A stretch of 64,000 nt of DNA from Minisyncoccota bacterium (GTDB lineage Bacteria; Patescibacteriota; Minisyncoccia; Phycocordibacterales; UBA12079). Below the pieces are notes generated by a model, which ran no database searches, was not told the origin of the DNA, and saw nothing but the letters and a program-made list of their open reading frames with translations. The stretch's first letter is position 1. The number at the start of each line of letters is the position of its first letter. The position numbers and the translations under genes were made by a program. The DNA is taken from NCBI GenBank assembly GCA_028689435.1, contig JAQTWD010000001.1:96-64095 (forward strand), in the 5' to 3' direction. Of this stretch, positions 7,539-36,342 are shown in pieces.

Positions 7539-7636
7539 AAAAAATACGACCGTATTTTTTATATCATTTTTCTGAATTTCCGAATTTCCGAATTATCATA
7601 AAATTTATGCGACCGCATAAATTTTATGATAATTCG
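7539..7636. repeat. two GACC-apex hairpins plus CCGAAT repeats
   Basis: AAAAAATAC-GACC-GTATTTTTT (7539-7562) and CCGAATTATCATAAAATTTATGC-GACC-GCATAAATTTTATGATAATTCGG (7588-7636). Confidence 0.6.
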
Positions 7637-7676
7637 GATAATAGCGACCTCACAAGAATTAATCCAGCACGGGTAA

Positions 7677-8596: not shown

Positions 8597-9484
8597 CTAT
8601 AGGTTTTTCTCGGCCTCTATAAATTCATCTATCTCCCCATCATCCAATACTTTATCAACATCTCTCACCTCTACCCCAGTTCTATGATCCTTTACCTGTT
8701 TATAAGGATGCAATACATATGAACGGATTTGGCTTCCCCACTCATTTTCTACCGTCGCACTTATCTGCATTCCCTTTTCTTGCTTTAACCTGTCTTCTTC
8801 TTGTTTTTTGATCAATTTTGCTTCTATCATAGCAATCGCTTTCTCTCTATTTTGCATCTGAGACCTTTCTGATTCTACATGAACAGCAATGTTTGTTGGG
8901 ATGTGCACCACTCTAACAGCCGTTTCTCTTTTATTTACATTTTGTCCCCCAGGGCCCGATGATTTTGCAAATTCTATTTTCAAATCTTCCTCTGGAATAT
9001 TTATCTCACCCGCTTTTTCCAATTTTGGTATTACCTCTACCATAGAAAAAGAAGTATGTCTTTTTTGTTGAGCGTTGAAAGGAGAAATTCTCACGAGACG
9101 ATGCACTCCTGATTCATTTTTTAATTTTCCATATGCTCCGTTACCAATAACTTCAAAAGTAATATTTCTGTAACCGCCATGATCATTTTCATTTGAATGA
9201 ATTAGAAAAGTTTCCCAGTTTTTATTTTGAGAAAATTTTAAATACATATTATATAAAATTCTAGAAAAATCTTCCGAATCATCTCCGCCTGCTCCTGACA
9301 AAATAGTTACGACTGCATTTCCTTTATCATATTTTCCCACTCCTTCTAACTCATCTTTCAATTGATTAAATTCTTTTATAACCACCTGTGCAGTTTCTTT
9401 GTCGTTCCAAAAATCAGCACGGCTCATTTGTTTTTCCAGTGCTTCTATTTTTTTTAATATTTCATTTTTTTTATCCGTACTCAT
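8597..9484 (-). CDS. prfB: peptide chain release factor 2 (short form, no programmed frameshift seen)
   Basis: 295 aa. SPF tripeptide (RISPFNAQ), GGQ motif (SGPGGQNVNK), WGSQIRSYVLHPY. Confidence 0.85.
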   Translation of the reverse strand: MSTDKKNEILKKIEALEKQMSRADFWNDKETAQVVIKEFNQLKDELEGVGKYDKGNAVVTILSGAGGDDSEDFSRILYNMYLKFSQNKNWETFLIHSNENDHGGYRNITFEVIGNGAYGKLKNESGVHRLVRISPFNAQQKRHTSFSMVEVIPKLEKAGEINIPEEDLKIEFAKSSGPGGQNVNKRETAVRVVHIPTNIAVHVESERSQMQNREKAIAMIEAKLIKKQEEDRLKQEKGMQISATVENEWGSQIRSYVLHPYKQVKDHRTGVEVRDVDKVLDDGEIDEFIEAEKNL

Positions 9485-10316: not shown

Positions 10317-10352
10317 GACCCCGTTCGCACAAGCGACACGGGGTCTGTTTTT
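10317..10352. terminator. intrinsic terminator shared by convergent genes
   Basis: GACCCCG-loop-CGGGGTC followed by TGTTTTTATTTTTTT. Overlaps the murC stop. Confidence 0.75.
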
Positions 10353-11646
10353 ATTTTTTTGAAAGAATTTTTTCGCCTACTTTGTAAACATCTCCCGCCC
10401 CCATTGTAATGATGACATCTTCTGGTCCAAAAATATCCGAATTAAATTCATTCATGATTTGATCGTATTCTATATAATAAGTTTCTCTATTATTTTTCTT
10501 TATCTTACTTGCAAGCATTTTGGAATTTATTTCTTTGTCTTCTTCTTCTCTGGCTGCATAAATTGGCAAAACAATTACACGGTCAACATCATTAAAACTT
10601 TTCGCAAAATCTTCTAAAAATATTTTTGTTCTACTATATAGATGTGGTTGAAAGATAACTGTGATTTTTTTACCTCTAAAAAATTCTCGCGCACCCTTCA
10701 ATGTCACTTGTACCTCTGTCGGATTGTGAGCATAGTCATCGTAAATCAAAGCACCTTTTTTTGTTTTGCCCTTTAACTCAAACCTTCTCCACGTACCTTC
10801 AAAATTGTTTAAAGATTTTATTGCATCGCTGTGATTGATACCCAAAATATTCGCAACGGCTAGACAAGCAAAAGCATTTTTTATATTGTGTTCTCCTGGT
10901 ATTTTCAACTTTAAACCAATCGCTCCTTGTGTAGTATAATCGACAACTTTTGAAACAGCCTTAACCAAAGCAGGGGCAACCCTCTTGTCATTTGGATCAC
11001 AAACTATATAGTCCTTTTCCCCCATTTTTGCCATCAGTTCTTTAAATGCTTTTTGGATATCAAAAATATTTTTAAAATAATCTAGATGATCCAAATCTAT
11101 ATTTGTAATCACAAGAATATTTGGTTTTAACTCTAAAAAAGATCTTTTATATTCGCACGCTTCTGTTACAAAATATTTGCTGTTTCCATGTATAAAGTTT
11201 GTTTTTTCTTTTTTTAAAAGACTTCCAACAATAACGGTTGGATCAAAATATGAATCTCGCAATACATCTGCCAACATTGCGGTAGTGGTTGTTTTTCCAT
11301 GTGTTCCAGATACAGCAATCGTATATTTATTTTCTGAAACACTCCCAAGAGAACGCGGATAAGATATTGCAGGGATTCCAATTTTTTTTGCCTTTAACAA
11401 TTCGGGATTATCTTTTGGAACAGCCGGAGAAAAAATAACCAAATCTGTACCAGATTCTATATTTTCTTCGTCGTGTTGAAATTTTATTACAGCTCCAAAT
11501 TTTTTTAATTCAGATGTAATCTCTGATTCTGCCAAATTTGAACCAGTAACCTTTTTTCCTTCTTTCAAAGCCATCCTTGCCATAGCAGAAACACCGATAC
11601 CCCCGATACCGATAAAGTGTATTTTTCTGGCATTTTTGAATTTCAT
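10351..11646 (-). CDS. murC: UDP-N-acetylmuramate--L-alanine ligase
   Basis: 431 aa. IHFIGIGGIGVSAMA, GTHGKTTTT P-loop, Mur ligase middle and C-terminal domains. Confidence 0.9.
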   Translation of the reverse strand: MKFKNARKIHFIGIGGIGVSAMARMALKEGKKVTGSNLAESEITSELKKFGAVIKFQHDEENIESGTDLVIFSPAVPKDNPELLKAKKIGIPAISYPRSLGSVSENKYTIAVSGTHGKTTTTAMLADVLRDSYFDPTVIVGSLLKKEKTNFIHGNSKYFVTEACEYKRSFLELKPNILVITNIDLDHLDYFKNIFDIQKAFKELMAKMGEKDYIVCDPNDKRVAPALVKAVSKVVDYTTQGAIGLKLKIPGEHNIKNAFACLAVANILGINHSDAIKSLNNFEGTWRRFELKGKTKKGALIYDDYAHNPTEVQVTLKGAREFFRGKKITVIFQPHLYSRTKIFLEDFAKSFNDVDRVIVLPIYAAREEEDKEINSKMLASKIKKNNRETYYIEYDQIMNEFNSDIFGPEDVIITMGAGDVYKVGEKILSKK

Positions 11647-11940
11647 CCAGTTAGAAGTAGCGAAGCTACTTCTAACGGGACAAGTCCCTAAAAAGTAACT
11701 GCTAATTTAATTTAATAATCTATTTTCCCGCTATCTCTAACGGGATTCATAACAAAAGTATTATAGCACAAGCTTGTGAGTAATAAGTAGTAAGGTGTAA
11801 GGTGTAAGGAGTAAGAATTAATGTGTAAATAAAAAAGCGAACTGAGTAATGAGAGTATCCAATCATCTTGTGGATACATGCCGTCATAGAGAAAACGTCT
11901 CTCTGTTAGCACTTTTATCACATCATCAATTCGCTTTTTG

Positions 11941-12188
11941 TGCGAATGCCAGGACTCGAACTCTGAAACACTCCATCGTGTTTCAGCCCGTCATTATCAG
12001 ATTAAATAGTTCCCAAGAACTGTTTAATCGCTCTAACTTTTTAAAGATAAAATAATGTATTAAGTGCGAATGCCAGGACTCGAACCTGGGACCTCGTCAT
12101 TATCAGTGACGCGCTCTAACCACCTGAGCTACACTCGCACTTAATACACTATTTTATTTTTAAAAAGAGCCACCTGAGCTACACTCGC
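11941..12188 (-). pseudogene. outer tRNA-Ile-like gene split in its D-loop by a 133-nt cassette carrying the intact tRNA-Ile
   Basis: cgctctaa (12029-12036) plus ccacctgagctacactcgc (12170-12188) together reproduce the D-arm of the intact gene. The 3' part keeps CTGATAATGACG and GAGTTCGAGTCCTGGCATTCGCA. Unrelated hairpins replace the anticodon-stem and T-stem 5' strands. Confidence 0.7.
12065..12138 (-). tRNA. tRNA-Ile (anticodon GAU)
   Basis: Reverse complement reads GCGAGTGTAGCTCAGGTGGTTAGAGCGCGTCACTGATAATGACGAGGTCCCAGGTTCGAGTCCTGGCATTCGCA, a canonical cloverleaf. Confidence 0.9.
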
Positions 12189-12460
12189 ATTTATATTTGA
12201 TTTTACCACAAACTCTATATGACGAGGTCCCCGAGTCATTATTAGGTGAGACAGTCTGGGAGACTGTCGAACCGCTCTAACCACCTGAGCTACACTCGCA
12301 CTTAATACACTATTTTATTTTTAAAAAGAGCCACCTGAGCTACACTCGCATTTATATTTGATTTTACCACGAACTCTATATGACGAGGTCCCCGAGTCAT
12401 TATTAGGTGAGACAGTCTGGGAGACTGTCGAACCGCTCTAACCACCTGAGCTACACTCGC
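12139..12460 (-). repeat. 2 x 161-nt tandem repeat built from tRNA-Ile fragments
   Basis: Unit 12139-12299 repeats at 12300-12460 with one mismatch. Each unit holds two copies of the tRNA-Ile 5' segment (ccacctgagctacactcgc) and a degenerate tRNA-like body with hairpin GACAGTCTCCCAGACTGTC. Confidence 0.8.
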
Positions 12461-12475
12461 ATATTTTATTTTTAA

Positions 12476-12550
12476 CGATACCTGCGGATTGTCATTATTA
12501 GATGAATGCGCTGGAGCATTCATCGCTCTAATCATTTAATATACACTCGC
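12476..12550 (-). pseudogene. degenerate tRNA-Ile-like copy
   Basis: Reverse complement reads GCGAGTGTATATTAAATGATTAGAGCG + hairpin ATGAATGCTCCAGCGCATTCAT + CTAATAATGAC... Confidence 0.55.
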
Positions 12551-12600
12551 ATTTATGAATATATGAATAGAAGAATACCAAAATATTCGTTCTGTTGCAA

Positions 12601-12629
12601 TAAAAAACTCCCGCCATTGCTGACGGGAG
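12601..12629 (-). terminator. intrinsic terminator of 12635..13186
   Basis: Minus strand: CTCCCG-TCAGCAATGG-CGGGAG followed by TTTTTTA. Confidence 0.75.
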
Positions 12630-12634
12630 AATAT

Positions 12635-13186
12635 TCAATTTTTGAGGAAATCCTCCAAAGGCTTTGCCTCTTCGGGGGTACTTAGATCAAGACGAATCCG
12701 GTCTAAACAAAAGAATAAAAATTCCAGAGCTTGCCCGTGTTTTTTAAGCAAGCGGTTTTTCTTTAAAAGAATCCGAAGGACATCTTCTGAAACCATTTCT
12801 GCAAACTTTAAAGTCTTGCAAGGACGAGGGTCTCCCTCTTCCAGTTTTGCAAGATAAAAATTTGCCAAATGCTTTCCATCCTCAGATTCCGACTCCGCCG
12901 TAAAAAACGGAATATCACTCAATCTCTCAAAAGAAATTCCGCATACCTCCGAGAGTATTTTAATACCCGATAAACGGGAATTTTTTTGAATATCATCCGA
13001 AGAATCAATTGACCCTCCGGGAAATTTAACAAAAAAGTTTTCCCAACGAGAACCTCCCTCTTTTTTACTCGGGTCCTCCATAACAATTAAAATATCTATT
13101 CCCTTCTTGTTATTTTTTTGTAAGATTATGCCGAAGCCGGCATAACTTGTCCTGCCGGTCTCTCTTACTTTTACTTCGGCTTGCAT
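12635..13186 (-). CDS. Nudix-like hydrolase (degenerate Nudix box; tentative)
   Basis: 183 aa. FPGGSID...ILSEVCGI loosely fits GX5EX7REUXEEXGU. Own promoter, GGGGG upstream of the ATG, and terminator. Confidence 0.45.
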   Translation of the reverse strand: MQAEVKVRETGRTSYAGFGIILQKNNKKGIDILIVMEDPSKKEGGSRWENFFVKFPGGSIDSSDDIQKNSRLSGIKILSEVCGISFERLSDIPFFTAESESEDGKHLANFYLAKLEEGDPRPCKTLKFAEMVSEDVLRILLKKNRLLKKHGQALEFLFFCLDRIRLDLSTPEEAKPLEDFLKN

Positions 13187-13262: not shown

Positions 13263-13469
13263 TAATAAAAAGCCACCTCTTGGCGACTTCTTTTTTTGCA
13301 TTTAAACGACAATATAATCTTTCTTTTGTTTCGTTTCATTCCCTAGTAACGGACATCTAGGGATACCGAGTATAGATTTAGGGATACAATACTATTGTCC
13401 CTATCACTTAAGAAGTGATAATCAACCGATTAAGTCTGTTTCCTCGTAAGAAAACAAACAGTTCATTTT

Positions 13470-15062
<1,593 letters not shown>

Positions 15063-21661: not shown

Positions 21662-22891
21662 GTGGATAATTCAAATATTACAAATAAACACAAAAAAGAG
21701 TGCCGAAAACAAGATTTATTCTCATTTAGAAATCTTTTAAAAGCATATTATCAATGCAGAAAAAGAAAAAGAAAGACGGTCAACGCATCAAAATTTGAAC
21801 TTGATTTTGAGAATGAATTATTAAGACTTGAAAAAGAACTAACGAACAAAACATACAAAATAGGTAATTCTATCTGTTTTGTTGTAACATATCCAACACC
21901 ACGAGAAATATTTGCGGCAGATTTTAAAGACAGAATTGTGCACCATCTTTTTATAAACCATATAGAAAAAATCTGGAATAAAAAATTTATTCATCATTCT
22001 TATGCTTGCAGAAAAAACAAAGGAGCACATGAAGCTATCAAAGATTTAAGAAAAACTCTCAGAAAAATAAGCTGTGATTTTTCCTGCCCTGTATATTATT
22101 TACAAGTTGATATTTCTGCATTTTTTATGTCTTTAAAAAAAGATATTCTTTTTGATTTAATTTGCAAACACTTAAAAAATCCTCAATTATTATGGCTAGC
22201 AAAACAAATTATTTTTCACGATCCAACCAAAGATTTTTATTGCAAAAGTGATAAAAAACTTTTTGAATTAATTCCAGACCATAAATCGCTTTTTAAAGTA
22301 CCTTGTAGACAAGGACTTCCTATTGGAAATCTTACATCTCAATTTTTTGCAAATATATATATGAATGAGCTAGACCAATTTGCCAAACACAATCTAAAAA
22401 TAAAATATTATTTTCGTTATGTTGATGATATTTTAATAATTGATGAAGATCCAAAACAACTAGAAAATTGGAAGAATCAAATAAATATTTTTCTCAAAAC
22501 AAAATTAGAAATTCACTTGCATCCAAAAAAATCAAAATTAAGATCTATTTATAAAGGAATAAATTTTGTCGGATTTATTATAAAACCAAATTATTTGATT
22601 ATTAGAAAAAGAACAATATCAAATTTAAAAAGAAAATTGTGGCAATTTAATCAATTTTTTGTAAAAAAAGATTATATTATTTCAAAAAATCAACTTGAAA
22701 AAATTTTGGCCGTTATCAATTCTTATTATGGACATTTTAAACATGCAAATACTTACAATCTTAAGAAATCTATTTATCAAAAACATTTTAAAAAATTAGA
22801 AAAATATATTGTACCCGCAAATGAAAATTTTGATTATTTTGAATTAAAATCTTCTCACACTACAAAAAATAGTTTTAGCAAAAATAAATAA
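21662..22891 (+). CDS. diversity-generating retroelement reverse transcriptase
   Basis: 409 aa. PREIFAADFKDRIVHHL, QGLPIGNLTSQFFANIY (DGR-type IGNxxSQ rather than group-II QGxxxSP), catalytic YVDD. TR and VR lie within 3.5 kb. Confidence 0.85.
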   Translation: MDNSNITNKHKKECRKQDLFSFRNLLKAYYQCRKRKRKTVNASKFELDFENELLRLEKELTNKTYKIGNSICFVVTYPTPREIFAADFKDRIVHHLFINHIEKIWNKKFIHHSYACRKNKGAHEAIKDLRKTLRKISCDFSCPVYYLQVDISAFFMSLKKDILFDLICKHLKNPQLLWLAKQIIFHDPTKDFYCKSDKKLFELIPDHKSLFKVPCRQGLPIGNLTSQFFANIYMNELDQFAKHNLKIKYYFRYVDDILIIDEDPKQLENWKNQINIFLKTKLEIHLHPKKSKLRSIYKGINFVGFIIKPNYLIIRKRTISNLKRKLWQFNQFFVKKDYIISKNQLEKILAVINSYYGHFKHANTYNLKKSIYQKHFKKLEKYIVPANENFDYFELKSSHTTKNSFSKNK

Positions 22892-22931
22892 AATATTTAT
22901 CAAGTTTATATTTATATAATTTTTAAAAAAA

Positions 22932-22967
22932 TGTTTAAAAATGTAGCGGTCGCGATTTTTTTAAACA
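22932..22967. repeat. hairpin TGTTTAAAAATGTAGC-GGTC-GCGATTTTTTTAAACA
   Basis: First of three near-identical hairpins partitioning the DGR locus (also 23614 and 24171). Confidence 0.7.
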
Positions 22968-23003
22968 AATCGGGAAATACCAGATTACAAAACATACTTA
23001 TTT

Positions 23004-23564
23004 TTAATCAATATCAAAAATCTCTTTTAACCACTTATCATTTTCTAGTTTATCAACAGTCATATAAAGCACATCTTTTCCAAGAAACAAATTAGATTTC
23101 ATTAATATTACTAGTTCTTCACAATCATAAGGAAATATCCAAACACTGTTTTGTAATTTAACAAAACCCAACCTGTCCAATGCAGATCTTAATATATGCC
23201 TTGTTCCTTTTCTACTTTCTTTTATATCAAACATCACCACTCGCCATTTTTTATCCCACCTTTTTGGTTTTTTTATTTCTAAATCTCCTATTTCATATTT
23301 AGCCAACTGTTCTTTCCCTTTTTCTGTTATGCGTAGAAATTTTTTTCCGTTTTTTTCCTCCCAAATCAAATTTCCTTTTTGAATAAGATTTTTTATTGAT
23401 TTATTTAGATAATTTTTTCTATTTCTGGTATCTTTTGAAAACTGTTTAAAAACTTGCAAAATATTTGGTGCCAAAACAGCAATACTGATTAGCCCAACTG
23501 TCGCAACTGTTGTCAAAACTATTTTTTGAATATTTAAATTATTTTTTACTTTTTGATTATTCAT
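23004..23564 (-). CDS. PaaX-like / Cas2-fold domain protein with N-terminal TM helix and winged-helix segment
   Basis: 186 aa. KRWDKKWRVVMFDIKESRKGTRHILRSALDRLGFVKLQNSVWIFP resembles the PaaX C-terminal (Cas2-like) domain. Paralog at 55360..55911. Confidence 0.55.
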   Translation of the reverse strand: MNNQKVKNNLNIQKIVLTTVATVGLISIAVLAPNILQVFKQFSKDTRNRKNYLNKSIKNLIQKGNLIWEEKNGKKFLRITEKGKEQLAKYEIGDLEIKKPKRWDKKWRVVMFDIKESRKGTRHILRSALDRLGFVKLQNSVWIFPYDCEELVILMKSNLFLGKDVLYMTVDKLENDKWLKEIFDID

Positions 23565-23613
23565 GATTATTATTGCGGTTACTATTATTACTATAATAAG
23601 TATACTAAAAAGG

Positions 23614-23649
23614 TGTTTAAAAATGTAGCGGTCGTTATTTTTTTAAACA
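23614..23649. repeat. hairpin TGTTTAAAAATGTAGC-GGTC-GTTATTTTTTTAAACA
   Basis: Second DGR-locus hairpin, upstream of the PaaX-like gene start. Confidence 0.7.
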
Positions 23650-23839
23650 ATATATTTTATATTTTATTATTATTTATTATATATACTTTATTTTAAACAC
23701 CTTATCTTTTATTTGTTTCCGAAAACATTCTATTTTAGATTTGATTTTAGACATTTTTTATAAATTTAAAATATTTTAATTTTCTTGAAAGAGCCGAGTT
23801 TTTATAAAATTTAGAGCATTTTTATTAAAATTATAATAA

Positions 23840-23976
23840 CCTAGCGAACACAACGAGAATCGTTCGCGTTAGTCTTAGCATTGTTGTTCGTGTTCCCGTT
23901 GTTCAAGTTCGTGTTCCAAGCATTCTGAGTAGCGTTAGATTGAGTAGTAGCAGACCAATAGTTGTTGGCGGCGTGG
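23840..23976 (-). repeat. DGR template repeat (TR)
   Basis: 137 nt aligning to 24875-25011. All 13 differences are plus-strand T in TR, which is A on the functional minus strand. The TR reading frame is rich in AAC/AAT codons. Confidence 0.9.
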
Positions 23977-24170
23977 ATTATTTCACTATTTGAAACATAA
24001 CCAAATTAATCTTTATCTAAACAAAGTATAATTTGAAAAAACTTTATACTTATTTAATTTATAAAATAAGTAAGTGAAATCGTGATTAAAATTTTAGCTC
24101 TCTTTTGATGTTCTCAAACAATCAAAACTCTGGCTCTTTCAAAAAAATTATTTTTTAGAATATATTATTA

Positions 24171-24206
24171 TGTTTAAAGATGCAGCAGTCGCAATTTTTT
24201 TAAACA
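24171..24206. repeat. hairpin TGTTTAAAGATGCAGCA-GTC-GCAATTTTTTAAACA
   Basis: Third DGR-locus hairpin, between TR and avd. Confidence 0.65.
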
Positions 24207-24461
24207 TCTTTAATTTAATTAAGCATTATTTAAAATTAAAAGTGTGACTATATTTATGTGGATTGCTTCGTGGTACTGCTTCAAATTTTTTCTCAAAAAA
24301 TTTGAAGTGCTCGCAAAGACGGGGGGATTCGTCGTCTTCGCGAGGAGTGGAACGAAGTGGAGCGACGAAGCGATCCACGTCGTTTGTGTTTTGGGTTCTG
24401 TGATTTGTTTGGTCATCTTTGGAATTTGTGTTTTGTGTTTTGTGTTTCTTCTTGAATTACT

Positions 24462-24824
24462 TCACTGCATTCGCAATGATGACGAAGTAGACCACTCTTT
24501 CCATTTGTTTAGTTGTCTACCTATTTCATCTATTTTTCTAGTCAAAAATTCAAAACCTTTTTGACCCAAAATTTTTAAATCAAAACAAATTCTAATATAG
24601 ATTTTTAATTTTTCTAAAATATTTTGTGCATTTTCAAGGTACATTGTTTTATTTTTAGCAGAATTAGCTGTAACAATCAAATCTAACAAATCAATACTCG
24701 TATTTTTTATTTTCTCTCCTATTGAGTGTCTATGCATTCTTGGAAAATTATTCGCTCTTTTGTGAATTTCCAAAGTCAAATCATACGTAGATTGAAAAAT
24801 CGGTAAATGCTGATAACGAGCCAT
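24462..24824 (-). CDS. avd: DGR accessory variability determinant (Avd; four-helix-bundle, 23S-IVS-protein family)
   Basis: 120 aa. NFPRMHRHSIGEKIKNTSIDLLDLIV parallels the Bordetella phage bAvd IPRKHGVAREMF... region. Located between VR and TR as in canonical DGRs. Confidence 0.75.
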   Translation of the reverse strand: MARYQHLPIFQSTYDLTLEIHKRANNFPRMHRHSIGEKIKNTSIDLLDLIVTANSAKNKTMYLENAQNILEKLKIYIRICFDLKILGQKGFEFLTRKIDEIGRQLNKWKEWSTSSSLRMQ

Positions 24825-24874
24825 ATTTAAAATAGATAAATAATTTAAATAATAAAATTACAAAATAATAATCA

Positions 24875-25011
24875 CCTAGCGAACACAACGAGAATCGTTC
24901 GCGTTAGTCTTAGCACTGGCGTTCGTGTACCCGTTGTACAAGGGCGTGTACCAAGCATTCTGAGTAGCGCTAGATAGAGTAGCAGCAGACCAATAGGTGT
25001 AGGCGGCGTGG
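24875..25011 (-). repeat. DGR variable repeat (VR)
   Basis: 3' end of the target gene. The first 41 nt (including the stop codon) are identical to TR; 13 substitutions follow, only at TR-adenine positions. Confidence 0.9.
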
Positions 25012-26204
25012 GGAAGATTCCCCCAAGAACCATCAATATAAGCCTGCATCAATTCTTTTTGATAAGGGGCACGCCAATTACCGTCCCCTAACAATTTACA
25101 ACCTGTAATGTTTGGGGTACTTGTTGCTGTAACACACTGACAGGCATCGTCACCTGTTGCAGAACAAGCCCCAGGGTTTGCCCAAGTCCCCGGCTCCCAA
25201 CAATTGTTTACCCAAAACCAAGTATGATTTGCTCCTCCATCCAACCAATCAGACCAAATCAAACCTGTGCTATTATCTTGATAACAAATATTTCCTGAAC
25301 AAGCGGTGGAATCGCCTGTTTTACAATAATTGTTCGCAGAGGTACATTGTGTCCAAGATGCAGAAAAAGTATCTGTTGGCATAGTGGTATTGTTGTTGTA
25401 ATCGTCCACACCACCCTTGACCTGAGTATAAAAAGCATAATCAAGAACACTCGTTCCAGCAGTTCCATTTTTTTGATTAACCACAGAAAACATACTCCTA
25501 TTCTCCAAATATTCTAGTCTTTCCAAAATATTTCCATCAGCATTCGCGGTTATTGTAGTTGAGCTATACCCTGTTTGAGAAATTGCGTCTAAATGACCGG
25601 CTCTTTCATCTGTCCATGTCGTCGTTGATAGTGCCGTATCTGATGAAGGAACTTTGTCCCACAGTCTTTTAAACCAACCAAAAATAGTATCTGTGCTTGT
25701 CGCAACAGAAGAACTACCAATATTATAGGCAATACTGCCTTCAACCGGAGTTGTTGATGATGTTGAGCTGGAAACAAGAAATCTTAAATCTGAATTAATA
25801 AAATCTAGATATCCAGCTCTCGTATCTGTCCATGTTGTTGTTGAAAGAGCAGTATCAGAAGATGCTCTTGATGAAATAGTAGTATTTAGATTATCTACAA
25901 TCAATTTACCAACACTATCAACGGTGGTTAATTCGGAAACACTTTTATTCCAAATACCAGAAACCAAACCTGCTATTGAATCACTAATTGCCTCCAAACT
26001 ATCTGTTGTTCTGTCAAAAGTATTATTAACATCTTTGGCTGTCATTTCCAAAATTGTCCACATGGTAGAAGCTGGGCTGGAAGAGGGGGTCAGAGACCCT
26101 GCTCTTACAACAGTCGAAACGGCAAAAGAAGATACCAAAACAATAGCCAAGACTTTTGAAAGATTTTGTATGCCCATTTTTATAAATCTATTCTTATTTT
26201 TCAT
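24876..26204 (-). CDS. DGR target protein: secreted/anchored, C-terminal DUF1566 / C-type-lectin (FGE-like) fold
   Basis: 442 aa. N-terminal signal/TM, internal duplication SSDTALSTTTWTD(T/E)RAG(Y/H)LD, C-terminus NWRAPYQKEL...NDSRCVR carrying the VR. Confidence 0.8.
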   Translation of the reverse strand: MKNKNRFIKMGIQNLSKVLAIVLVSSFAVSTVVRAGSLTPSSSPASTMWTILEMTAKDVNNTFDRTTDSLEAISDSIAGLVSGIWNKSVSELTTVDSVGKLIVDNLNTTISSRASSDTALSTTTWTDTRAGYLDFINSDLRFLVSSSTSSTTPVEGSIAYNIGSSSVATSTDTIFGWFKRLWDKVPSSDTALSTTTWTDERAGHLDAISQTGYSSTTITANADGNILERLEYLENRSMFSVVNQKNGTAGTSVLDYAFYTQVKGGVDDYNNNTTMPTDTFSASWTQCTSANNYCKTGDSTACSGNICYQDNSTGLIWSDWLDGGANHTWFWVNNCWEPGTWANPGACSATGDDACQCVTATSTPNITGCKLLGDGNWRAPYQKELMQAYIDGSWGNLPHAAYTYWSAATLSSATQNAWYTPLYNGYTNASAKTNANDSRCVR

Positions 26205-30286: not shown

Positions 30287-30563
30287 AATGAAAATTCAAA
30301 AGTTAAAAATCAAAAGTCAAAATTAAGACTTAAAATTAAAATTATAAAGATGGTTAAATGATAACAAAAAAACATCACTTTTGTAAGTGACAGTAGAAAC
30401 TAAGCTTATAGCTGATAGCGACGACGACAGAATCGTCATCTTTGCGAACGAAGTGAAGCAATCCAGAAGAATTTTGCCTGCAATGTCGTTGTTTTTCTTT
30501 AAGAAAATAAGCAGAGATTAACCCAGCACTCAAGTTTTTACCAAAAACTTGAGTGCTGGGCGT

Positions 30564-30880
30564 ACTGCCGTGTGCGGAACTTGCAAATTTAAGTTTTTAT
30601 AGAAATAAAAAAATTGAATACCTAATGTTGGCGCTTACCTACTTTCCCCATAAAAGAGTATCATCGGTTCTAGAAGGCTTAACTGCCGTGTGCGGAATGA
30701 GAACGGGTGTACCCCTTCCGACGAAGCACCAACATTAGATATTCAATTTTCAATTTTTTTTATTTCTATAAAAACACAATTATTTGCAAGGGTGTCGTAT
30801 TGTTTTCATCTTACAAAATATTTAGTTTATACAAACTAACTATTTTGTAAGATGAAAGCCCTTCCGACGAAGCACCAACA
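30564..30880 (-). pseudogene. outer, truncated 5S-like copy interrupted by the palindromic cassette that carries the intact 5S gene
   Basis: actgccgtgtgcggaa (30564-30579), gggtgt (30790-30795) and cccttccgacgaagcaccaaca (30859-30880) duplicate consecutive segments of the intact 5S 5' half. They are separated by hairpins and by the cassette. Confidence 0.65.
30626..30734 (-). rRNA. rrf: 5S rRNA
   Basis: Reverse complement reads TGTTGGTGCTTCGTCGGAAGGGGTACACCCGTTCTCATTCCGCACACGGCAGTTAAGCC...GGGAAAGTAGGTAAGCGCCAACA. Helix I pairs. Confidence 0.85.
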
Positions 30881-31101: not shown

Positions 31102-31182
31102 TGGAGCAAGGGGCTGGATTTGAACCAGCGACAACACAACCTACTCAGGCTATGAGCTCTGTCCTGACTGAGCTACCCTTGC
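31102..31182 (-). tRNA. tRNA-like element in the 23S-5S spacer with a non-canonical anticodon arm (identity undetermined)
   Basis: Reverse complement reads GCAAGGG-TA-GCTCAGTCAGGACAGAGC-T-CATAGCCTGAGTAGGTTGTG-TTGTC-GCTGGTTCAAATCCAGC-CCCTTGC-T-CCA. Acceptor, D-arm, T-arm and an encoded CCA are perfect, but the anticodon arm is a 7-8 bp stem with a 4-6 nt loop. Confidence 0.55.
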
Positions 31183-31474
31183 CCAATATATATGAATAAC
31201 AAGAAATTGTTTTTAAAATAAGAATCGTGTCCTTTGAAATTCCTAATAAGAAATATCTCGATGCATTAGTACTCCTCGGCTGAACACATTACTGTGCTTA
31301 CACCTAGAGCCTATCACCTGATCATCTCTCAGGGATCTTAAACGATTCCTAATCTTGAAGTTGGCTTCCCTCTTAGATGCTTTCAGAGGTTATCCATTCC
31401 CAACATAGCTACCCAGCGGTGCTCCTGGCGGAACAGCTGGTACACCAGAGGTTAGTTCACTCCGGTCCTCTCGT

Positions 31475-32333
31475 CGTGTTTAAAAAATTTCATTCTTTTC
31501 GAAATTCGAAACTATGAATTCAAAATTTTTTATCTTCCCCTATTTCTAGGAGCACAGACTATATCTTCACCCTTTCCTCATGAACAGGACTGGGGTGGTG
31601 GCGTGTTACATACAGAGACTGTCATTTTCACCGAAATGATTCAGCACATCCATACGTCTGTCATAAAAATGGTTTTATTTTTATAGACAAGTCGTTACGG
31701 GGTCAAACCCAAAATTCTATACAAATCTTTTTTATTTAAAGTACTTCGACTGGCATAATTTTCTTTTTTGATTATTAATACCAAATCAACTATTCTGCGT
31801 ATTTGTTGTTTAGATAAATTGTTTATATTAACAGAGCTTAAAATTTCACAAGCTTCTATAAGAGCTTTAGTCTGTTTAGACTTGAACTTTATAAAAGGTT
31901 GTAATAATAAAAGAATTTCTTTTATTGTTTTAAATCCATTAATACGCAATTCGGACATTCCATCGTTTCTACGAGAAATGTATCCCACTCCAAACACTTT
32001 ACGCATCCACAAAAGTGGTTTTTCATGACGAGTATCTTGATACAGACAAATTGTTGCCATAAATCTTACGCCCTTTTTTGTATCAGAACGTTTTTTGATT
32101 TGTAACATCAAACTGCCATCACCATCAAGAAAACCCGCGATGTACGCTAAATTATTTGTATTGATTTTGAATCGACTTCCCACGGTATTGCCTTAAAGAG
32201 GATTATGGTCCTCAAGCATATTATACCACACAAGAACCGAGAGTGTGTATAATACTCAAACCACAACCATATGAAGGTTTCACCGTTATAGCCACTTTGT
32301 CATCACACATCTCTGTGTGAAGTAGCAAAATTT
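31475..32333 (-). mobile_element. group-I intron in the sarcin-ricin loop (between E. coli positions ~2656 and 2657) with a LAGLIDADG ORF
   Basis: Exon junction CCTAGT|...|ACGAGAGGACCGG. The 5' exon ends in U and the intron ends in G. J8/7-like GAAGATATAGTCTG is present. Confidence 0.75.
31695..32183 (-). CDS. LAGLIDADG homing endonuclease (single-motif type)
   Basis: 162 aa. LAYIAGFLDGDGSLML. GTG start inside the conserved 17-mer CAATACCGTGGGAAGTC. Confidence 0.8.
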   Translation of the reverse strand: MGSRFKINTNNLAYIAGFLDGDGSLMLQIKKRSDTKKGVRFMATICLYQDTRHEKPLLWMRKVFGVGYISRRNDGMSELRINGFKTIKEILLLLQPFIKFKSKQTKALIEACEILSSVNINNLSKQQIRRIVDLVLIIKKENYASRSTLNKKDLYRILGLTP

Positions 32334-32384
32334 ACTAGGAGCAAATCTTCTCAAGAATCAACGCCTGCAGCAGATAGGAGACCA

Positions 32385-32419
<35 letters not shown>

Positions 32420-32489
32420 ACTTTTTAATTGGCGAACAGCCAAACCCTTGGGACCTTCTCCAGCCCCAGGATAAGTTGAGCCGACATCG

Positions 32490-33341
32490 CAATGTCGTCT
32501 TTGAACCGCGAGATTCAAAGTTTTAATCCATTGTTACCAATGGTTTGGACTATATATTCACCTTTTTTTTAAAAAAGTTAAGGTGTTGGCGTTTTAGCAC
32601 TTCGTATTTGAAGCACTCTGTCCGTCAACCGACGGACAAGTCTCTACGGGGTCATAACTCAATTTGTATTTCATTGAAGGAATAATGTGTGGTTCAATAA
32701 TAGAATTCAATTTTTCAATACTTTCTTTCAAAAATCTAATCCTATAATATTTTTTATCTTTATTTAAACGAGCCTTTAAGCCCATTTTTCTCAAAGAATG
32801 CAATAATATTTTTTGTTCCTTCATAGAAAATTGTTGTGTGTTTAAATACACATCATTTTTTCTAGATTTACTTCCATCATCCATAAACCAAACCGCTAAA
32901 ATAATTGAATCTAATTCCAAATTATTTGGTATGGTTTTACTTTTATTTTTGTAAAAGTTTTTCATTAAATCAGTTATTTCTGGATGTTGTTTTGTAAAAA
33001 ATCTATAAGCTTTTCTGTCATTTTCTCCACTACTTCCTTTTGGAGGAGAAACACAAATATTTTTTAATATAGAATATTTCCAATCAACATATTCTTTGGC
33101 TTTGATAGAATGATTTATTTCTAAAAATGCATCTTTCCTGTTAGGTGCAATCCTAACATATCCATCACCAAGAATAGATCCCATTATTACTGATTTTTGT
33201 TGTTGAGTTAGACTTCCCACGGTATTGTCCATAATCATTACATTATAGCTGATTATATTATGGAGTCCACCGTTATAAGCCAATATTTTTTGTAGGATAT
33301 TTCTATCCTAGGCACCCCGATGTAAGTTGTAACTTAAGTTA
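32490..33341 (-). mobile_element. group-I intron at 23S position ~2500 (peptidyl-transferase centre) with a LAGLIDADG ORF
   Basis: Exon junction GGCACCT|...|CGATGTCGGCTC. The 5' exon ends in U and the intron ends in G. J8/7-like GAATATATAGTCC is present. Confidence 0.8.
32594..33283 (-). CDS. LAGLIDADG homing endonuclease (double-motif type)
   Basis: 229 aa in the track. Motifs IMGSILGDGY and AVWFMDDGS. The true start may be the GTG at 33220, inside the same 17-mer seen in the other intron. Confidence 0.8.
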   Translation of the reverse strand: MAYNGGLHNIISYNVMIMDNTVGSLTQQQKSVIMGSILGDGYVRIAPNRKDAFLEINHSIKAKEYVDWKYSILKNICVSPPKGSSGENDRKAYRFFTKQHPEITDLMKNFYKNKSKTIPNNLELDSIILAVWFMDDGSKSRKNDVYLNTQQFSMKEQKILLHSLRKMGLKARLNKDKKYYRIRFLKESIEKLNSIIEPHIIPSMKYKLSYDPVETCPSVDGQSASNTKC

Positions 33342-33911
33342 AGGTGCCGAACATCGCCGTCGATATGAACTCTTAGGCGATACCAGCCTGTTATCCCCAG
33401 GGTAGCTTTTATCCGTTAATCTTCACCCGCGTCTAATGCGAGGTGTCGGTTCACTATGCTCTGCTTTCGCACTTGTTCGGCATGCACGCCTCACAATCAA
33501 GCCAGCTTGTGCCATTACACTATCAGCACGGTTTCCATTCGCGCTTAGCTGACCTTAATAGGCTCCTCCGTTACTTTTTAGGAGGATAGCGCCCCACTAA
33601 AACTACCTGCCAGATACTGTCTCCCGCCGTTTTTTCCGTCGAGATTAGAATGTACATTTTTAAAGAGTGGTATTTCACTGATGACTCCAGACAATCCAAA
33701 AACTGCCCTTCAAAGTCTCCCACCTATGCTACGCATCAAAAACATACACCCAATACCAAGCTATAGTAAAGCTCCTGGGGTCTTTTCGTCTAGCTGCAGG
33801 TAACCGGCATCTTCACCGGTATTGTATTTTCACCGAGCTGTTCCCCGAGACAGTATCCCACTCATTACGCCATTCGTGCACGTCTACAATTACTAGACAA
33901 GGAATTTCGCT

Positions 33912-34290
33912 TGATTTTGTTACTATCCAATTTAAAACTGGATGAATGAATCATTTCTGTTCATTTCTACATATCGCTATGCAGTCCGGACTATAATTTC
34001 TAAGTTTAAAACTTAGTCTAGCGTTTAGTCTCTGAGGATTCTTGCGTATTTTGCAAGTCTTTCCTGCTGATTTTCCGCACTGATCAGATTTTTACTTTTT
34101 AGAAAAGTACTGTCAGATTCTCGGATTTTCCAGCATATGGCTAGATGTTTTATGACGTTTTATAAAATAAATTTTATAAAACAGGCAACATTTATTCCTT
34201 AAATTACTTTGTACACCAATTTTTTATCTTGTTTATCTTAGTATCCACAACAGTCCTAGTCTTTGTACCTCCTTATAAAAAAGAGGCACA
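33912..34290 (-). mobile_element. ORF-less group-I-like intron at 23S position ~1931
   Basis: Exon junction CCTAAGGT|...|AGCGAAATTCC. J8/7-P7-like GAAATTATAGTCCGGAC is present. The last intron base reads A, not the expected G. Confidence 0.6.
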
Positions 34291-34325
<35 letters not shown>

Positions 34326-34344
34326 CAGGGCTTATATCAGACAG

Positions 34345-36248: not shown

Positions 36249-36299
36249 CTCCCACTCCTTGTAGGCATATGGTTTCAGGTCTATTTCACTCCCCTCTCC

Positions 36300-36342
<43 letters not shown>

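Follow-up and report, generated by a model that had tools for sequence, protein, structure and literature searches.

A tRNA-Ile gene nested in a degenerate copy of itself within a strain-variable relic array, and a similar nest at the 5S rRNA gene, in a CPR bacterium

Overview

The intact tRNA-Ile(GAU) gene of the window (the whole 64 kb stretch of DNA analysed) lies between the arms of a long inverted repeat, inside the D-loop of a second, degenerate copy of the same gene. The original prediction treated this nest as a stand-alone locus. We found instead that it is one form of an array of tRNA-Ile relics that varies between strains and whose design is repeated at the 5S rRNA gene. The outer copy and the upstream units E, D and C represent colinear pieces of tRNA-Ile, 100% identical to it in patches, with perfect hairpins between them. 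Our preferred explanation, which we give about an even chance of being correct, is that these are self-derived relics of template switching at breaks or stalls, reshuffled by recombination between tRNA-derived repeats, with the inner gene alone working and its arms probably forming a processing stem.

MurC in the window is 96% identical to MurC of CP011215 (Candidatus Campbellbacteria), and on sequence grounds the host is a Campbellbacteria-like CPR bacterium. The window is AT-rich and rRNA introns are present, as might suggest a chloroplast; this origin was rejected because MurC, SecDF and RF2, together with matching genome contigs, identify a CPR bacterium.

The tRNA-Ile nest

The nest and its 3′ flank consist of the following features.

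12170 to 12189, minus strand: 5′ part of the outer copy, from T(-1) through gene nt 19, covering the acceptor 5′ strand and the D arm to GGTGG, identical to the inner gene at 20/20 positions
12140 to 12169, minus strand: L arm, CTCTTTTTAAAAATAAAATAGTGTATTAAG, forming the 5′ side of the long stem
12065 to 12138, minus strand: intact tRNA-Ile(GAU), the sole copy able to fold as a tRNA, with CCA unencoded
12037 to 12064, minus strand: R arm, the inverse of the L arm at 26/28 positions
11941 to 12036, minus strand: 3′ part of the outer copy, TTAGAGCG (nt 20-27), a 28-nt hairpin (12001-12028), CTGATAATGACG (nt 33-44), GGC, a 22-nt hairpin (11964-11985), GA and GTTCGAGTCCTGGCATTCGCA (nt 54-74)
11832 to 11939, minus strand: remodelled 3′ flank, a 14-bp long-range stem (AAAAAGCGAATTGA with TCAGTTCGCTTTTT) around two small hairpins

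ARAGORN and Rfam both called the inner gene on the minus strand, starting at 12064 or 12065 and ending at 12138, and the covariance-model run suggested with the original prediction thus recovered the tRNA-Ile(GAU) that had been placed at 12065-12138. It scored 70.7 bits against RF00005 (threshold 29), as a canonical bacterial tRNA does. The pair T(-1):A74 and the R arm prolong the acceptor helix without a break, and an inverted-repeat search accordingly returned 12037-12072 with 12132-12167 (36 nt, 92% complementarity), acceptor stem included. The arms proper pair at about 26 of 28 positions, as predicted, with a score of 48 against 17.4 +/- 2.9 for shuffled sequences. The predicted fold of the 271-nt region combines an outer acceptor helix, the L/R stem and the inner cloverleaf; its minimum free energy of -100.4 kcal/mol (z = -8.3) was equalled by none of 200 shuffles. 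A processing stem would be expected to show a flanking helix of at least 20 bp, and the L/R helix has 28 bp, continuous with the acceptor stem. Since it continues the acceptor stem, it probably must be cut first, and the arms probably serve the inner tRNA as a processing stem. The working gene is the inner copy only.

The 133-nt block at 12037-12169 interrupts the colinear second copy within its D-loop, between GGTGG and TTAGAGCG. When the block is removed, GCTCAGGTGG meets TTAGAGCG, the two being contiguous in the intact gene, and nothing is lost; the exact junction originally described holds base for base. Once spliced, the outer copy matches the inner gene at 60 of 74 nt, in three colinear blocks of 100% identity (nt 1-27, 33-44 and 54-74). 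The 28-nt hairpin stands in for gene nt 28-32, which is exactly the 5′ strand of the anticodon stem, and gene nt 45-53 are swapped for GGC, the 22-nt hairpin and two bases. Each hairpin is perfect and unique within the window. ARAGORN called no tRNA gene in the spliced outer copy with or without its two hairpins, and cmscan (E<=10) over 11600-12700 gave no second tRNA match. The description of the outer copy as degenerate, with hairpins substituted for stem strands, was therefore accurate.

The outer copy sits at the site of the working gene in the sister genomes L001 (CP011215), L082 and L098, where the gene is preceded by a D-unit tail ending in AAATATAAA and followed by CAAAAA. The uninterrupted outer gene, whose presence in sister genomes had been proposed as a check, therefore exists at the same position in all three. 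The 3′ flank stem of the window takes the place of the simple terminator of sister genomes (compared with L001).

The upstream relic array

Relic units continue upstream of the nest to 12551. They had gone unmentioned in the earlier description and are listed here with the elements that precede them.

12190 to 12300, minus strand: relic unit D, copy 1, with hairpin H1 at 12245-12273, within a 161-nt tandem repeat
12301 to 12350, minus strand: unit C, copy 2, a 5′ head made of position -1 and gene nt 1-19 (12331-12350), with a duplicate L arm (12301-12330)
12351 to 12461, minus strand: relic unit D, copy 2, gene nt 1-27, hairpin H1 (12406-12434), CTAATAATGAC, hairpin H2, the T-loop remnant GAGTTCG and a tail
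12462 to 12551, minus strand: relic unit E, the tRNA 5′ strand with a decayed D arm, an 8-bp hairpin, CTAATAATGAC and an AT-rich tail ending in TTAAAAATAAAATA
12572 to 12600, minus strand: candidate promoter, TTGCAA-17 nt-TATTCT, before the first relic unit and under the promoter-scan threshold
12608 to 12629, minus strand: intrinsic terminator of the upstream 183-aa ORF (12635-13186), a 9-bp stem followed by a T run, kept in L001 and L079

Positions 12112-12461 form a 161-nt tandem repeat of 2.2 copies at 99% identity, and the duplication is bounded by 28-nt heads. Fragments of the gene's ends are thus present as direct repeats beside it, with copy-number changes bounded by repeats, as tandem partial duplication would leave them. 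The relics lie 28-111 nt from the working gene and represent both its 5′ and its 3′ parts. The terminator parts the tRNA-Ile unit from 16S and the 183-aa ORF. Positional equivalents of the promoter-like element occur in L002 (TTGCGA-17-TATATT) and L098 (TTGCAC-17-TATATT). If the putative promoter is real, all relic units lie within the tRNA-Ile primary transcript.

The perfect 8-bp hairpin of unit E (12502-12523) occupies the place of the anticodon-stem 5′ strand. Its orthologue in L079, E′, has the same layout, with compensated changes in three of the eight hairpin pairs and every pair intact. The 14-nt core of the L arm is the tail of unit E, a match reached by 0/500 shuffles. Within hairpin H2 of unit D, gene nt 39-51 recur as a perfect 13-nt inverted copy, adjoining its direct source. 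Unit D was also found in L001, L083/L098 and L002; its first 82 nt are about 90% conserved and its tail is not. A sigma-70 promoter inside D or E was rejected as the cause of conservation, the matches being weak and the spacing wrong. We also rejected D as a cloverleaf-like RNA with an acceptor pairing of its own, as the putative 3′ partner AGUUCGUG is missing in L002.

A second nest at the 5S rRNA gene

The 5S rRNA gene, 18 kb from the tRNA-Ile locus and likewise absent from the original prediction, has the same nested layout.

30522 to 30879, minus strand: the whole 5S nest
30859 to 30879, minus strand: outer 5S nt 1-21
30804 to 30857, minus strand: perfect 25-bp hairpin
30790 to 30795, minus strand: ACACCC
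30734 to 30789, minus strand: L arm
30626 to 30733, minus strand: intact 5S
30581 to 30625, minus strand: R arm
30564 to 30580, minus strand: outer 5S 3′ part, GTTCCGCACACGGCAGT
30522 to 30560, minus strand: 18-bp hairpin, with the decayed remainder beyond it

The arms span about 45 nt, and the target duplication is 0-4 nt. The layout recurs in a distant relative (L091-L093, three assemblies), in which the neighbouring protein of L091 is 64% identical to that of the window, and the limits of the cassette (TTGCAAAT and ATTTGCAA) are the same in the window and L091. Helix I of the outer 5S is still pairable, and the outer 3′ end in the window is largely decayed. RNAalifold on the window and L091 nests, two lineages only, found 18 pairs changed on both sides, four of them in hairpin A and 8-9 in the gene-adjacent arms. 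The outer 5S copies bear the variants of their own genomes (4/4 informative sites in L091, 2/2 sites covered in the window), which indicates concerted evolution. Synteny of the 5S neighbourhood is lost in more distant relatives, and the contig of the closest relatives starts 36 nt before the neighbouring gene.

Variation among relatives

Contigs that share one identical MurC protein (96% to that of the window) carried three to four other versions of the tRNA-Ile spacer. The contigs L079-L105 derive from metagenomes of the Rifle aquifer and related sites. The complete genome L001 has D, the tRNA and CAAAAAACC, with no nest. Four separate assemblies (L079, L080, L081 and L105) share an identical second nest, in which the intact gene splits the copy after CTGATA in the anticodon loop, with ATA duplicated at the junction (3 nt). 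Once spliced, the outer copy of L079 still scans as tRNA-Ile; it has two substitutions, both of which break stems. The arms of this type are about 85 and 70 nt long with a perfect 26-nt inverted core. Outside the core they are only about 80% complementary, and were therefore not made recently as one perfect snap-back, unless they have since diverged. Similarity between the L079 and window arms was insignificant (z of about 2.7-2.9, with a few of 300 shuffles as high), and on this shuffle test we rejected homologous cassette arms in the two. None of the relatives has arms orthologous to those of the tRNA nest in the window. L082 is L079 less exactly 101 nt bounded by a 32-nt direct repeat, a deletion derivative without the 3′ relic. 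Near-identical strains thus differ at the locus by events that start and end in tRNA-derived direct repeats.

A different arrangement was found in L098, whose MurC is 80% identical. Here the outer 3′ relic of the window stands in tandem downstream of the working gene, with no nest. In its distal part 58/60 nt recur, including the 22-nt hairpin (H2′), which is identical at 22/22 positions. L098 holds this relic and the R arm and relic of L079 in series, and the L arm of L079 is absent there. Since the outer 3′ relic is tandem and un-nested in L098, the pieces are older than the arrangement in the window, and nest or tandem arrangement could each have come first. The original idea of a cassette inserted into a second gene was thus correct as to a precise nest, but insertion is only one possible history.

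Conservation along the array is graded: 100% in the tRNA, 97% in the outer 3′ relic (relicA), 91% in D and about 80% in E, with leaders and tails unalignable. The non-tRNA part of D, including H1 and H2, is about 87% identical between the window and L002, against 70.6% for murC DNA. L083 and L098 are 100% identical across 307 nt.

In other Parcubacteria loci, tRNA-Ile, tRNA-Gln and tRNA-Asp are flanked by partial self-copies. The same pattern of tandem tRNA-fragment repeats was seen in L017, L005 and L009; 3′ relic repeats stand next to the gene in L005, L009 and L002, and in L002 terminator palindromes run into the tRNA 3′ end. Relic breakpoints fell in loops in about 8/9 cases by an informal count, compared with 38% expected.

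These comparisons make it very improbable that the nest is an assembly artefact, in which a short-read assembler joined strain variants at the 20-28-nt tRNA repeats or miscounted the 161-nt repeat. The unique segments (L, R and the two hairpins) allow a single order on the 3′ side (tRNA, R, relic, flank), and junction repeats of 20-28 nt are below the usual final k-mers. The source is apparently a MAG contig, and reads of 150 nt are too short to bridge a 161-nt repeat whose copies are 99% identical. Many public contigs end within the array (L083, L084, L089 and L100-L105), and L083 may be a chimera. However, the equivalent nest of L079 is identical in four independent assemblies and the 5S nest was seen again in three. 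The 5′ end of the array was confirmed by L089, an independent Logan assembly, which agrees with the window through the terminator, unit E and the first part of D until its contig breaks in the repeat.

Searches for a mobile, intron or known-family origin

No integrase or transposase was detected within about 9 kb of the nest. Pfam scans of 18 ORFs between 5.2 and 33.3 kb found no integrase; the matches were MurC, RF2, SecD/F, PAP2, FtsW, the reverse transcriptase of a diversity-generating retroelement and LAGLIDADG proteins. An att-site relic of an integrated element was rejected on the lack of an integrase and of a kb-scale insert, and on the short distances between relics and gene. The reverse transcriptase, the only one in the window, lies 9.5 kb away; a link to it was rejected because it is part of a retroelement with its own template and variable repeats and has no tie to the nests.

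When the window locus and two loci of L002 were run through cmscan (E<=10), only tRNA was found besides chance matches to miRNA and sRNA models. A group I intron was rejected, since no intron family matched at E<=10, the insert is in the D-loop and holds a tRNA, and its removal restores no tRNA. Split or permuted tRNAs and bulge-helix-bulge introns were rejected as well, since the window exons do not rejoin into a foldable tRNA. A phage or viral source was rejected on pattern scans of IMG/VR, which gave 0 matches.

Terminal inverted repeats, as a MITE or IS element would have, are present (26/28). A target-site duplication of fixed length is lacking: the window has none, L079 has 3 nt and the 5S nests have 0-4 nt. 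No dispersed copies with shared ends were found in the 64 kb window and fetched loci, the arms and hairpins being confined to this locus. A dispersed hairpin or MITE family was rejected because the arms and all four hairpins are confined to the locus within the window. A search for donors of the hairpins and filler (blastn-short against the window and eight related loci) returned only the 14-nt AT-rich motif of the E tail inside L.

These results bear on a mobile self-complementing cassette, a non-autonomous element with terminal inverted repeats and a complete stable-RNA gene that would insert into the resident copy. Insertion would be tolerated because the element brings a working copy, and would be fixed once the outer copy decays. 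Such an element would explain the precise junction without loss between GGTGG and TTAGAGCG, the inverted repeats, the occurrence of nests at two tRNA-Ile sites and one 5S site, the shared 5S limits and the duplicated ATA of L079. Nevertheless we regard it as improbable. The window and L079 nests differ in site, their arms are unrelated and their target duplications are inconsistent, which argues against one defined mobile cassette. There is no further copy of arm or hairpin in the window, fetched loci or IMG/VR, no transposase or integrase nearby, and the sole reverse transcriptase belongs to the diversity-generating retroelement. The R arm of L079 occurs in L098 without its L arm, and the inner and outer gene sequences are identical, which indicates a copy from the same genome. 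Among the origins suggested with the original prediction, template-switch repair and a processing scaffold remain the leading ones, and the cassette is disfavoured.

A proposed origin by template switching

We suggest the following course of events. Stable-RNA genes are highly transcribed and strongly structured, and DNA synthesis may stall or break in one of their loops. The nascent strand would then copy leader and gene again, fold back on the terminal helix (acceptor stem or 5S helix I) and copy the leader inverted. Its 3′ end would be returned to the base of the extruded hairpin, and synthesis would restart at the next base. One such fold-back event would suffice to produce inverted arms, a precise junction without target duplication and a working inner copy. 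Later, unequal homologous recombination between 20-32-nt repeats would duplicate, delete and mix units, and gene conversion from the working gene would hold the tRNA-like patches identical. At present the entire array would form one precursor, with its promoter just past the upstream terminator. The 28-bp L/R helix would probably be cut first by a double-strand-specific nuclease (RNase III), and RNase P cleavage, 3′ trimming and CCA addition would follow.

Fold-back should leave an inverted copy beside its direct source, and this was found in the 13-nt inverted copy in D, in the R arm as the inverse of L and in the terminator palindromes of L002. Several observations count against template switching. 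The replication event is one that we infer, and junction microhomology is weak, with overlaps of 0-3 nt and the E-tail motif inside L as the sole donor found. The L arm differs from the present upstream flank of the outer head and does not simply repeat it. A hairpin at the same site in three relics (E, D and the outer copy) would not be predicted by a purely random process, unless these are paralogues. Some non-tRNA parts also appear too conserved for junk: the identity of H2′ and of D, and the pairing of the 5S arms and hairpin A through 12-13 double changes, suggest that the structure is under selection or that the locus is exchanged laterally.

Selection would be expected if the relics, hairpins and arms were functional parts of the tRNA-Ile and 5S primary transcripts, a reading that we consider doubtful. 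Duplicated terminal strands and inverted arms would then form a long bracketing helix, which would draw the two ends together for RNase III-type processing or would protect the precursor, and the hairpins would block competing pseudo-tRNA folds or mark relics for decay. The 5S nest common to the window and so distant a relative as L091, with its 18 doubly changed pairs, is consistent with such a scaffold, as are the three compensated pairs of the E and E′ hairpins, the conservation of the H1 and H2 region of D and of relicA beside unalignable leaders and tails, and predicted folds far more stable than those of shuffles. The graded conservation argues against a single recent transfer. However, L001 has only D and the tRNA and L082 has no 3′ relic, so no part of the nest is indispensable. 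Strains with the same MurC protein vary freely at the locus, the decay of the outer 5S 3′ end in the window also speaks against a scaffold, and neither CTRATAAYGAC nor the relic heads have a nameable function. Self-correction of palindromes through template switching can look like covariation, and recombination between co-resident lineages can look like conservation, as in the 307 nt shared by L083 and L098.

It is likewise no more than tentative that self-nesting could be a distinct organisation of stable-RNA genes in Campbellbacteria-like CPR, kept by selection or a dedicated mechanism. The working tRNA or 5S would be expressed inside a hairpin-decorated self-copy, and the duplicated ends and covarying arms would act as a scaffold for processing or protection. 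The relic units (tRNA 5′ half, variable hairpin and anticodon-loop motif) would then make up a novel class of conserved leader and trailer RNA elements derived from tRNA.

Implications

We found no description in the literature of nested tRNA or 5S genes in CPR. In a streamlined genome each rRNA gene is basically single-copy (PMC9297842). The tRNA-Ile(GAU) and 5S rRNA genes are normally among the most stable of such a genome, but here each is a focus of self-duplication and palindrome formation and differs in structure between strains. If their origin is mutational, as under template switching, the nests would preserve natural traces of break or stall repair at structured, highly expressed genes of minimal-repair organisms, and would show a route by which an essential single-copy RNA gene can be broken up and yet retained. 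Were the structures selected, they would show how CPR mature tRNA and 5S rRNA, and they would establish new non-coding elements derived from tRNA. The arrays break short-read assemblies, can yield chimeric contigs and produce pseudo-tRNA calls; they could also be high-resolution strain markers.

Comparison with known systems

The tyrT locus of E. coli has 178-bp units (3.14 copies) after tRNA-Tyr, each with the last 19 nt of the tRNA, which are the source of rtT RNA. These are tandem tRNA-end units beside a working gene, co-transcribed with it and explained by unequal recombination, and they resemble the D and C repeat described here and the 3′ relic repeats of L005, L009 and L002. Unlike the nests, they have neither nesting, nor inverted arms around the gene, nor hairpins in place of stem strands. 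rRNA precursors have processing stems, and the intervening sequences of 23S rRNA are excised by RNase III. There too, long inverted repeats extend the terminal helix of a stable RNA and RNA genes tolerate hairpin inserts, and the 5S arms described here covary between two lineages. Here, in contrast, the stem encloses a tRNA that is not flanked by one in sister genomes, and it lies in turn within a dead copy of that gene.

A complete tRNA gene beside partial identical copies of itself is also seen in att duplications, and tRNA fragments left by integrating elements are a source of false tRNA calls, according to the part of the source available to us (PMC9897764). The att copies represent one gene end, usually the 3′ end, and bound an integrase-carrying element of 9-23 kb. 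The relics described here are 28-111 nt away, include 5′ and 3′ parts, are nested and bear hairpins, with no recombinase nearby. Disrupted tRNA genes of archaea and red algae include multiple-intron, split and permuted forms (PMC4390854, PMC3978253, PMC3728597). In the available parts of these accounts, inserts are likewise found at non-canonical sites (D-loop, anticodon loop) and some are hairpin-like, but the interrupted gene is functional and is restored by a splicing endonuclease. Here removal of the inserts restores no tRNA, the insert holds a whole tRNA and the host is bacterial.

The remaining comparison is with quasi-palindrome template-switch mutagenesis and with duplications by fork stalling and template switching that carry inverted filler, for example under the ODIRA model (PMC10766183). 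In the part of that literature available to us, such events are described for bacterial point or short-patch mutations and for eukaryotic copy-number variants, rather than for recurrent stable-RNA nests. What they have in common with the present loci are inverted copies beside their source, perfect palindromes, filler duplications and minimal microhomology.

The nested tRNA-Ile gene

The tRNA-Ile unit of the window consisted of an intact gene, its inverted arms (L and R), a broken outer copy and a series of tRNA-Ile relics (units E, D and C).

Parts of the tRNA-Ile unit, in RNA order
12551-12462, minus: unit E, the first relic after the terminator
12461-12351, minus: unit D
12350-12301, minus: unit C
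12300-12190, minus: second unit D
12189-12170, minus: head of C
12169-12140, minus: arm L
12138-12065, minus: intact tRNA-Ile(GAU), canonical, 70.7 bits
12064-12037, minus: arm R
12036-11941, minus: 3′ part of the outer copy

Arms L and R paired at 26 of 28 positions, many more than in shuffled sequences, and extended the acceptor helix via T(-1):A74. Excising L-tRNA-R (133 nt) fused GGTGG with TTAGAGCG, exactly the D-loop sequence of the intact gene. Three colinear blocks of the spliced outer copy (nt 1-27, 33-44 and 54-74) were identical to the gene. Its anticodon-stem 5′ strand was exactly swapped for a 28-nt hairpin, and the variable loop, together with most of the T-stem 5′ strand, had given way to GGC and a 22-nt hairpin. 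ARAGORN did not detect a tRNA in the spliced copy, with the hairpins kept or removed. The region folded as a nested helix (z = -8.3). The original prediction, an intact tRNA-Ile on an inverted-repeat stem cleanly inserted into the D-loop of a degenerate copy with hairpins replacing stem strands, was thus correct in each of these respects, but it missed the relics reaching 12551 and the 161-nt tandem repeat formed by D+C (2.2 copies, 99% identity).

The relics are self-derived, and of all the copies the inner ones alone are functional genes. Inverted copies adjoined their sources: D held 13 nt of the adjoining tRNA segment as a perfect inverted copy, and R was the inverse of L, the core of which was identical to the leader-type tail of unit E.

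The locus in related genomes

The unit is flanked by a MurC-like ligase gene (10351-11646) and, on the minus strand, a 183-aa ORF (12635-13186) with its terminator (12608-12629, minus). The ligase was 96% identical to MurC of CP011215 (L001), the complete genome of a Candidatus Campbellbacteria (Parcubacteria, candidate phyla radiation), and weaker relatives were without exception from Patescibacteria. The 183-aa ORF, which lies between the 16S gene and the tRNA-Ile unit, had zero Pfam or NCBIfam matches, and its conservation (56-100% identity) was confined to this small clade. We compared the spacer between this ORF and murC among contigs encoding an identical MurC (P0001, 96% identical to that of the window), and it varied among them.

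Spacer structure in contigs encoding P0001 (E′ and E″ are counterparts of unit E)
L001: D + tRNA, 482 nt
L079, L080, L081: E′ + nt 1-38 + 85-nt arm + intact tRNA + 70-nt arm + nt 43-74 + usual 3′ flank, 676 nt
L082, L084: as L079, minus exactly 101 nt (right arm + 3′ relic)
L083: E″ + D + tRNA

The L079 type is a second nest, in the anticodon loop. Its junction falls after CTGATA, with ATA on either side, and the region folds as a nest (z = -6.0). The spliced outer copy had two substitutions and still scored positive in a tRNA-Ile scan. This nest was identical in four independent assemblies. Because sister nests recur in this way, an assembly artefact is a very improbable source of the nest itself, although the D+C copy number in the window is uncertain. 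The L079-type arms were unrelated to those of the window, yet contained a perfect 26-nt inverted core. That the nests arose from a mobile cassette is improbable: in addition to the unrelated arms, target duplications were inconsistent, arm and hairpin sequences had no second copy in the window, and no recombinase appeared among 18 ORFs (5.2-33.3 kb) scanned with Pfam.

All simple haplotypes had the D tail 5′ of the working gene and CAAAAA 3′ of it. The outer copy of the window holds this working-gene position; sister genomes carry there the uninterrupted gene that the original prediction had proposed to look for. The 101-nt segment missing from L082 and L084 was bounded by a 32-nt direct repeat.

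More distant relatives, L098 and L099 (MurC 80% and the 183-aa ORF 56% identical to those of the window), carried the whole tRNA-Ile transcription unit (1800-2720), between the two protein genes, in the opposite orientation to that of the window and L001. The unit comprised a promoter-like box, relics, gene and terminators, and its order in tRNA sense was promoter-like box, E″, D, intact tRNA, short spacer, a tandem 3′ relic (relicA), the L079-type right arm with its 3′ relic, terminator, and a structured element ending in the last 18 nt of the tRNA. Of the 60 distal nucleotides in the outer 3′ part of the window, 58 matched relicA, and the 22-nt hairpin was identical. Together with the L079-type right arm and 3′ relic, this match means that the pieces which in the window and L079 resemble the far side of an insertion occur in another lineage in tandem, 3′ of the gene. 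These contigs change the historical reading of the nest, and the haplotypes are mosaics linked by recombination between tRNA-derived repeats.

In L083 (ENA ERZ27254763 k141_481901, 1-519), the left 307 nt were 100% identical to the L098-type array and the right side, with its flank and murC, was that of the P0001-type lineage. As this contig is either chimeric or the product of natural recombination at the tRNA, we did not rely on it. Many other public contigs (L084, L089, L100-L105) end within the tRNA-Ile array. In L002 (MurC 66%, murC DNA 70.6% identical to the window), the D unit bore a 117-nt structured insertion at the equivalent D-loop position; the non-tRNA part of D, including its hairpins H1 and H2, was ~87% identical to that of the window, and leader and tail were unalignable.

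A nest at the 5S rRNA gene

The rRNA genes of the window are unlinked, in the order 23S, tRNA-like gene, 5S, with 16S 15 kb beyond 5S on the same strand.

rRNA region of the window
31270-36989, minus: 23S rRNA gene, interrupted by introns bearing LAGLIDADG ORFs
31695-32183 and 32594-33283: LAGLIDADG homing-endonuclease ORFs within 23S
31102-31182, minus: tRNA-like gene, Rfam 43.7 bits
30626-30733: 5S rRNA gene
13466-15061: 16S rRNA gene

The Rfam match to 23S covered 3699 nt (model 2925 nt), the 3′ domain resuming near 31290-31480. The tRNA-like gene had an irregular anticodon loop (4-base anticodon 'gagt' according to ARAGORN), and a counterpart was found at the equivalent position in L091 (2114-2184, 59.2 bits, loop CTGCTTG).

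The 5S gene has the same design as the tRNA-Ile nest. In order, the locus contained outer 5S nt 1-21, a perfect 25-bp hairpin, ACACCC, a ~55-nt arm starting TTGCAAAT, the intact 5S, an inverted arm ending ATTTGCAA, GTTC-CGCACACGGCAGT, a perfect 18-bp hairpin and a decayed remainder. GTTC-CGCACACGGCAGT resumes the 5S sequence immediately past ACACCC. Parcubacteria have 5S genes of ~105-110 nt, and CPR rRNA genes are described as basically single-copy, with no mention of duplicates (PMC9297842).

L091-L093, where the neighbouring protein was just 64% identical, shared this layout, and their outer copy was better preserved. Between the two lineages the inner 5S gene differed at four positions, and outer copies carried their own genome's state at every covered site (4 in L091, 2 in the window), which we read as concerted evolution. 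RNAalifold of the two lineages recovered 18 pairs changed on both sides; the shared hairpin accounted for four of them, and the gene-adjacent arms, otherwise unrelated in sequence, for eight or nine. The shared layout, concerted evolution and double-sided changes indicate that the 5S nest is old and suggest that its helices have been maintained.

Non-tRNA hairpins were conserved or compensated in several comparisons (E with E′, D with L002, relicA in the L098 comparison, and the 5S hairpin and arms), and E, D and the outer copy share one hairpin site. Structural selection, with relics, hairpins and arms serving as a precursor scaffold, would account for both observations. However, L001 has only D + tRNA, the locus varies freely among strains, and palindrome self-correction or lateral recombination would offer non-selective alternatives, leaving a scaffold possible but doubtful. 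No donor sequences for the hairpins were found in the window or eight related loci; like the hairpin conservation and the common hairpin site, this sits uneasily with the origin proposed below.

Partial copies at other tRNA genes

A k-mer search for partial self-copies across 37 tRNAs, all those of the loci compared by then, detected them only in Patescibacteria: of tRNA-Ile (L005, L009, L015), tRNA-Gln (L002, L017, L080) and tRNA-Asp (L038). Some were plain tandem duplications with a single breakpoint within the gene. L017 (20400-20680) had at least two tandem 101-nt units 5′ of tRNA-Gln, in each of which the native leader accompanies gene nt 1-39 and a decayed 3′ half; such units are the plain tandem form of the relic phenomenon. 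L009 and L005 repeated the 3′ part and trailer, and the L009 partial copy had a 49-nt hairpin in its D-loop. By an informal count, breakpoints were mostly in loops (D-loop, anticodon loop, T-loop).

A recurrent structured element was observed 3′ of tRNA-Ile, tRNA-Gln and tRNA-Asp genes in several Parcubacteria (L002 9183-9570 and 15548-15932; L038 11295-11465; L015 ~160-330; L098, reverse strand, 1845-2010). In L002 it began with a terminator palindrome, followed by the tRNA 3′ end in inverted copy and a GGCGGAG...GAGCCG core. Next came an AT-rich hairpin, its loop being GAGTCCNNAGGATGA, and finally the terminal 18-20 nt of the neighbouring tRNA, copied in direct orientation. The L038, L015 and L098 elements likewise had both inverted and direct tRNA-end copies, with looser forms of the core. 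The element had no Rfam match and was not present in the window.

Origin of the nests

The locus has evolved through repeat-bounded events. We suggest that synthesis stalled or broke within a loop of an RNA gene that is both structured and highly expressed, and that the nascent strand copied leader and gene again before folding back on the terminal helix. Reverse copying of the leader would then bring the strand back to the extruded hairpin's base, and synthesis would resume from there. A single such event would yield inverted arms, a precise junction, no target duplication and a viable cell, since a complete gene copy arises at the same time. Later unequal recombination and gene conversion would have produced the variety seen among haplotypes, as well as the patches of 100% identity. 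Today the whole array may be one transcript, and the 28-bp stem would have to open or be cleaved ahead of RNase P and 3′ processing; by analogy with rRNA processing stems, the cleavage would probably be by RNase III. We give this composite of stall and fold-back, recombination and single transcript an even chance.

Other features of the window

The window had a G+C content of 30-43%, and its minus strand carried nearly all genes. Long, near-perfect AT-rich palindromes were numerous in intergenic regions (arms 29-46 nt, centres 2-3 nt, several centred on CG), for example at 1302-1377, 7566-7659, 38726-38787, 53857-53917, 54113-54174 and 55916-55983. Their probable role is that of bidirectional terminators. 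The window had 124 inverted-repeat pairs in all (≥14 nt, within 200 nt), and the palindrome abundance suggests a genome-wide tendency toward palindrome formation.

Release factor 2 was a 295-aa ORF (8597-9484, minus) starting inside the PCRF domain, and in L079 (4058-5159) a 70-aa ORF stopped 1 nt ahead of the release factor 2 ORF; this layout matches the pattern expected for a programmed +1 frameshift of prfB.

A diversity-generating retroelement occupied 21662-26204.

Retroelement features
21662-22891, plus: reverse transcriptase ORF
23827-23976: template repeat, 150 nt
24862-25011: matching variable repeat
24876-26204, minus: ORF with an Lcl_C/DUF1566-type C terminus and the variable repeat at its 3′ end

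Fourteen of the 15 mismatches between the repeats were at template T (A on the coding strand). A 45-nt palindromic element, TAAAAAAATGTTTAAAAATGTAGCGGTCGCGATTTTTTTAAACAA, occurred in three copies of 80-100% identity spread over the region (22924-22968, 23606-23650, 24163-24207).

Comparison with known systems

Literature searches turned up no account of a working gene within its own dead copy, either in CPR or in other bacteria. Related features are known: tandem repeats holding a tRNA end at E. coli tyrT, long flanking stems in rRNA processing, and disrupted tRNA genes in archaea and red algae. Partial tRNA genes are well known too, left behind when elements integrate and, rarely, serving as CRISPR spacers (PMC9897764). 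In none of these does a complete working gene sit, as it does in the window, on an inverted-repeat stem within a colinear dead copy of itself. We consider it rather unlikely that the nest is a distinct, maintained architecture, and file the nests with self-duplication relics at stable-RNA genes, already known as a kind.
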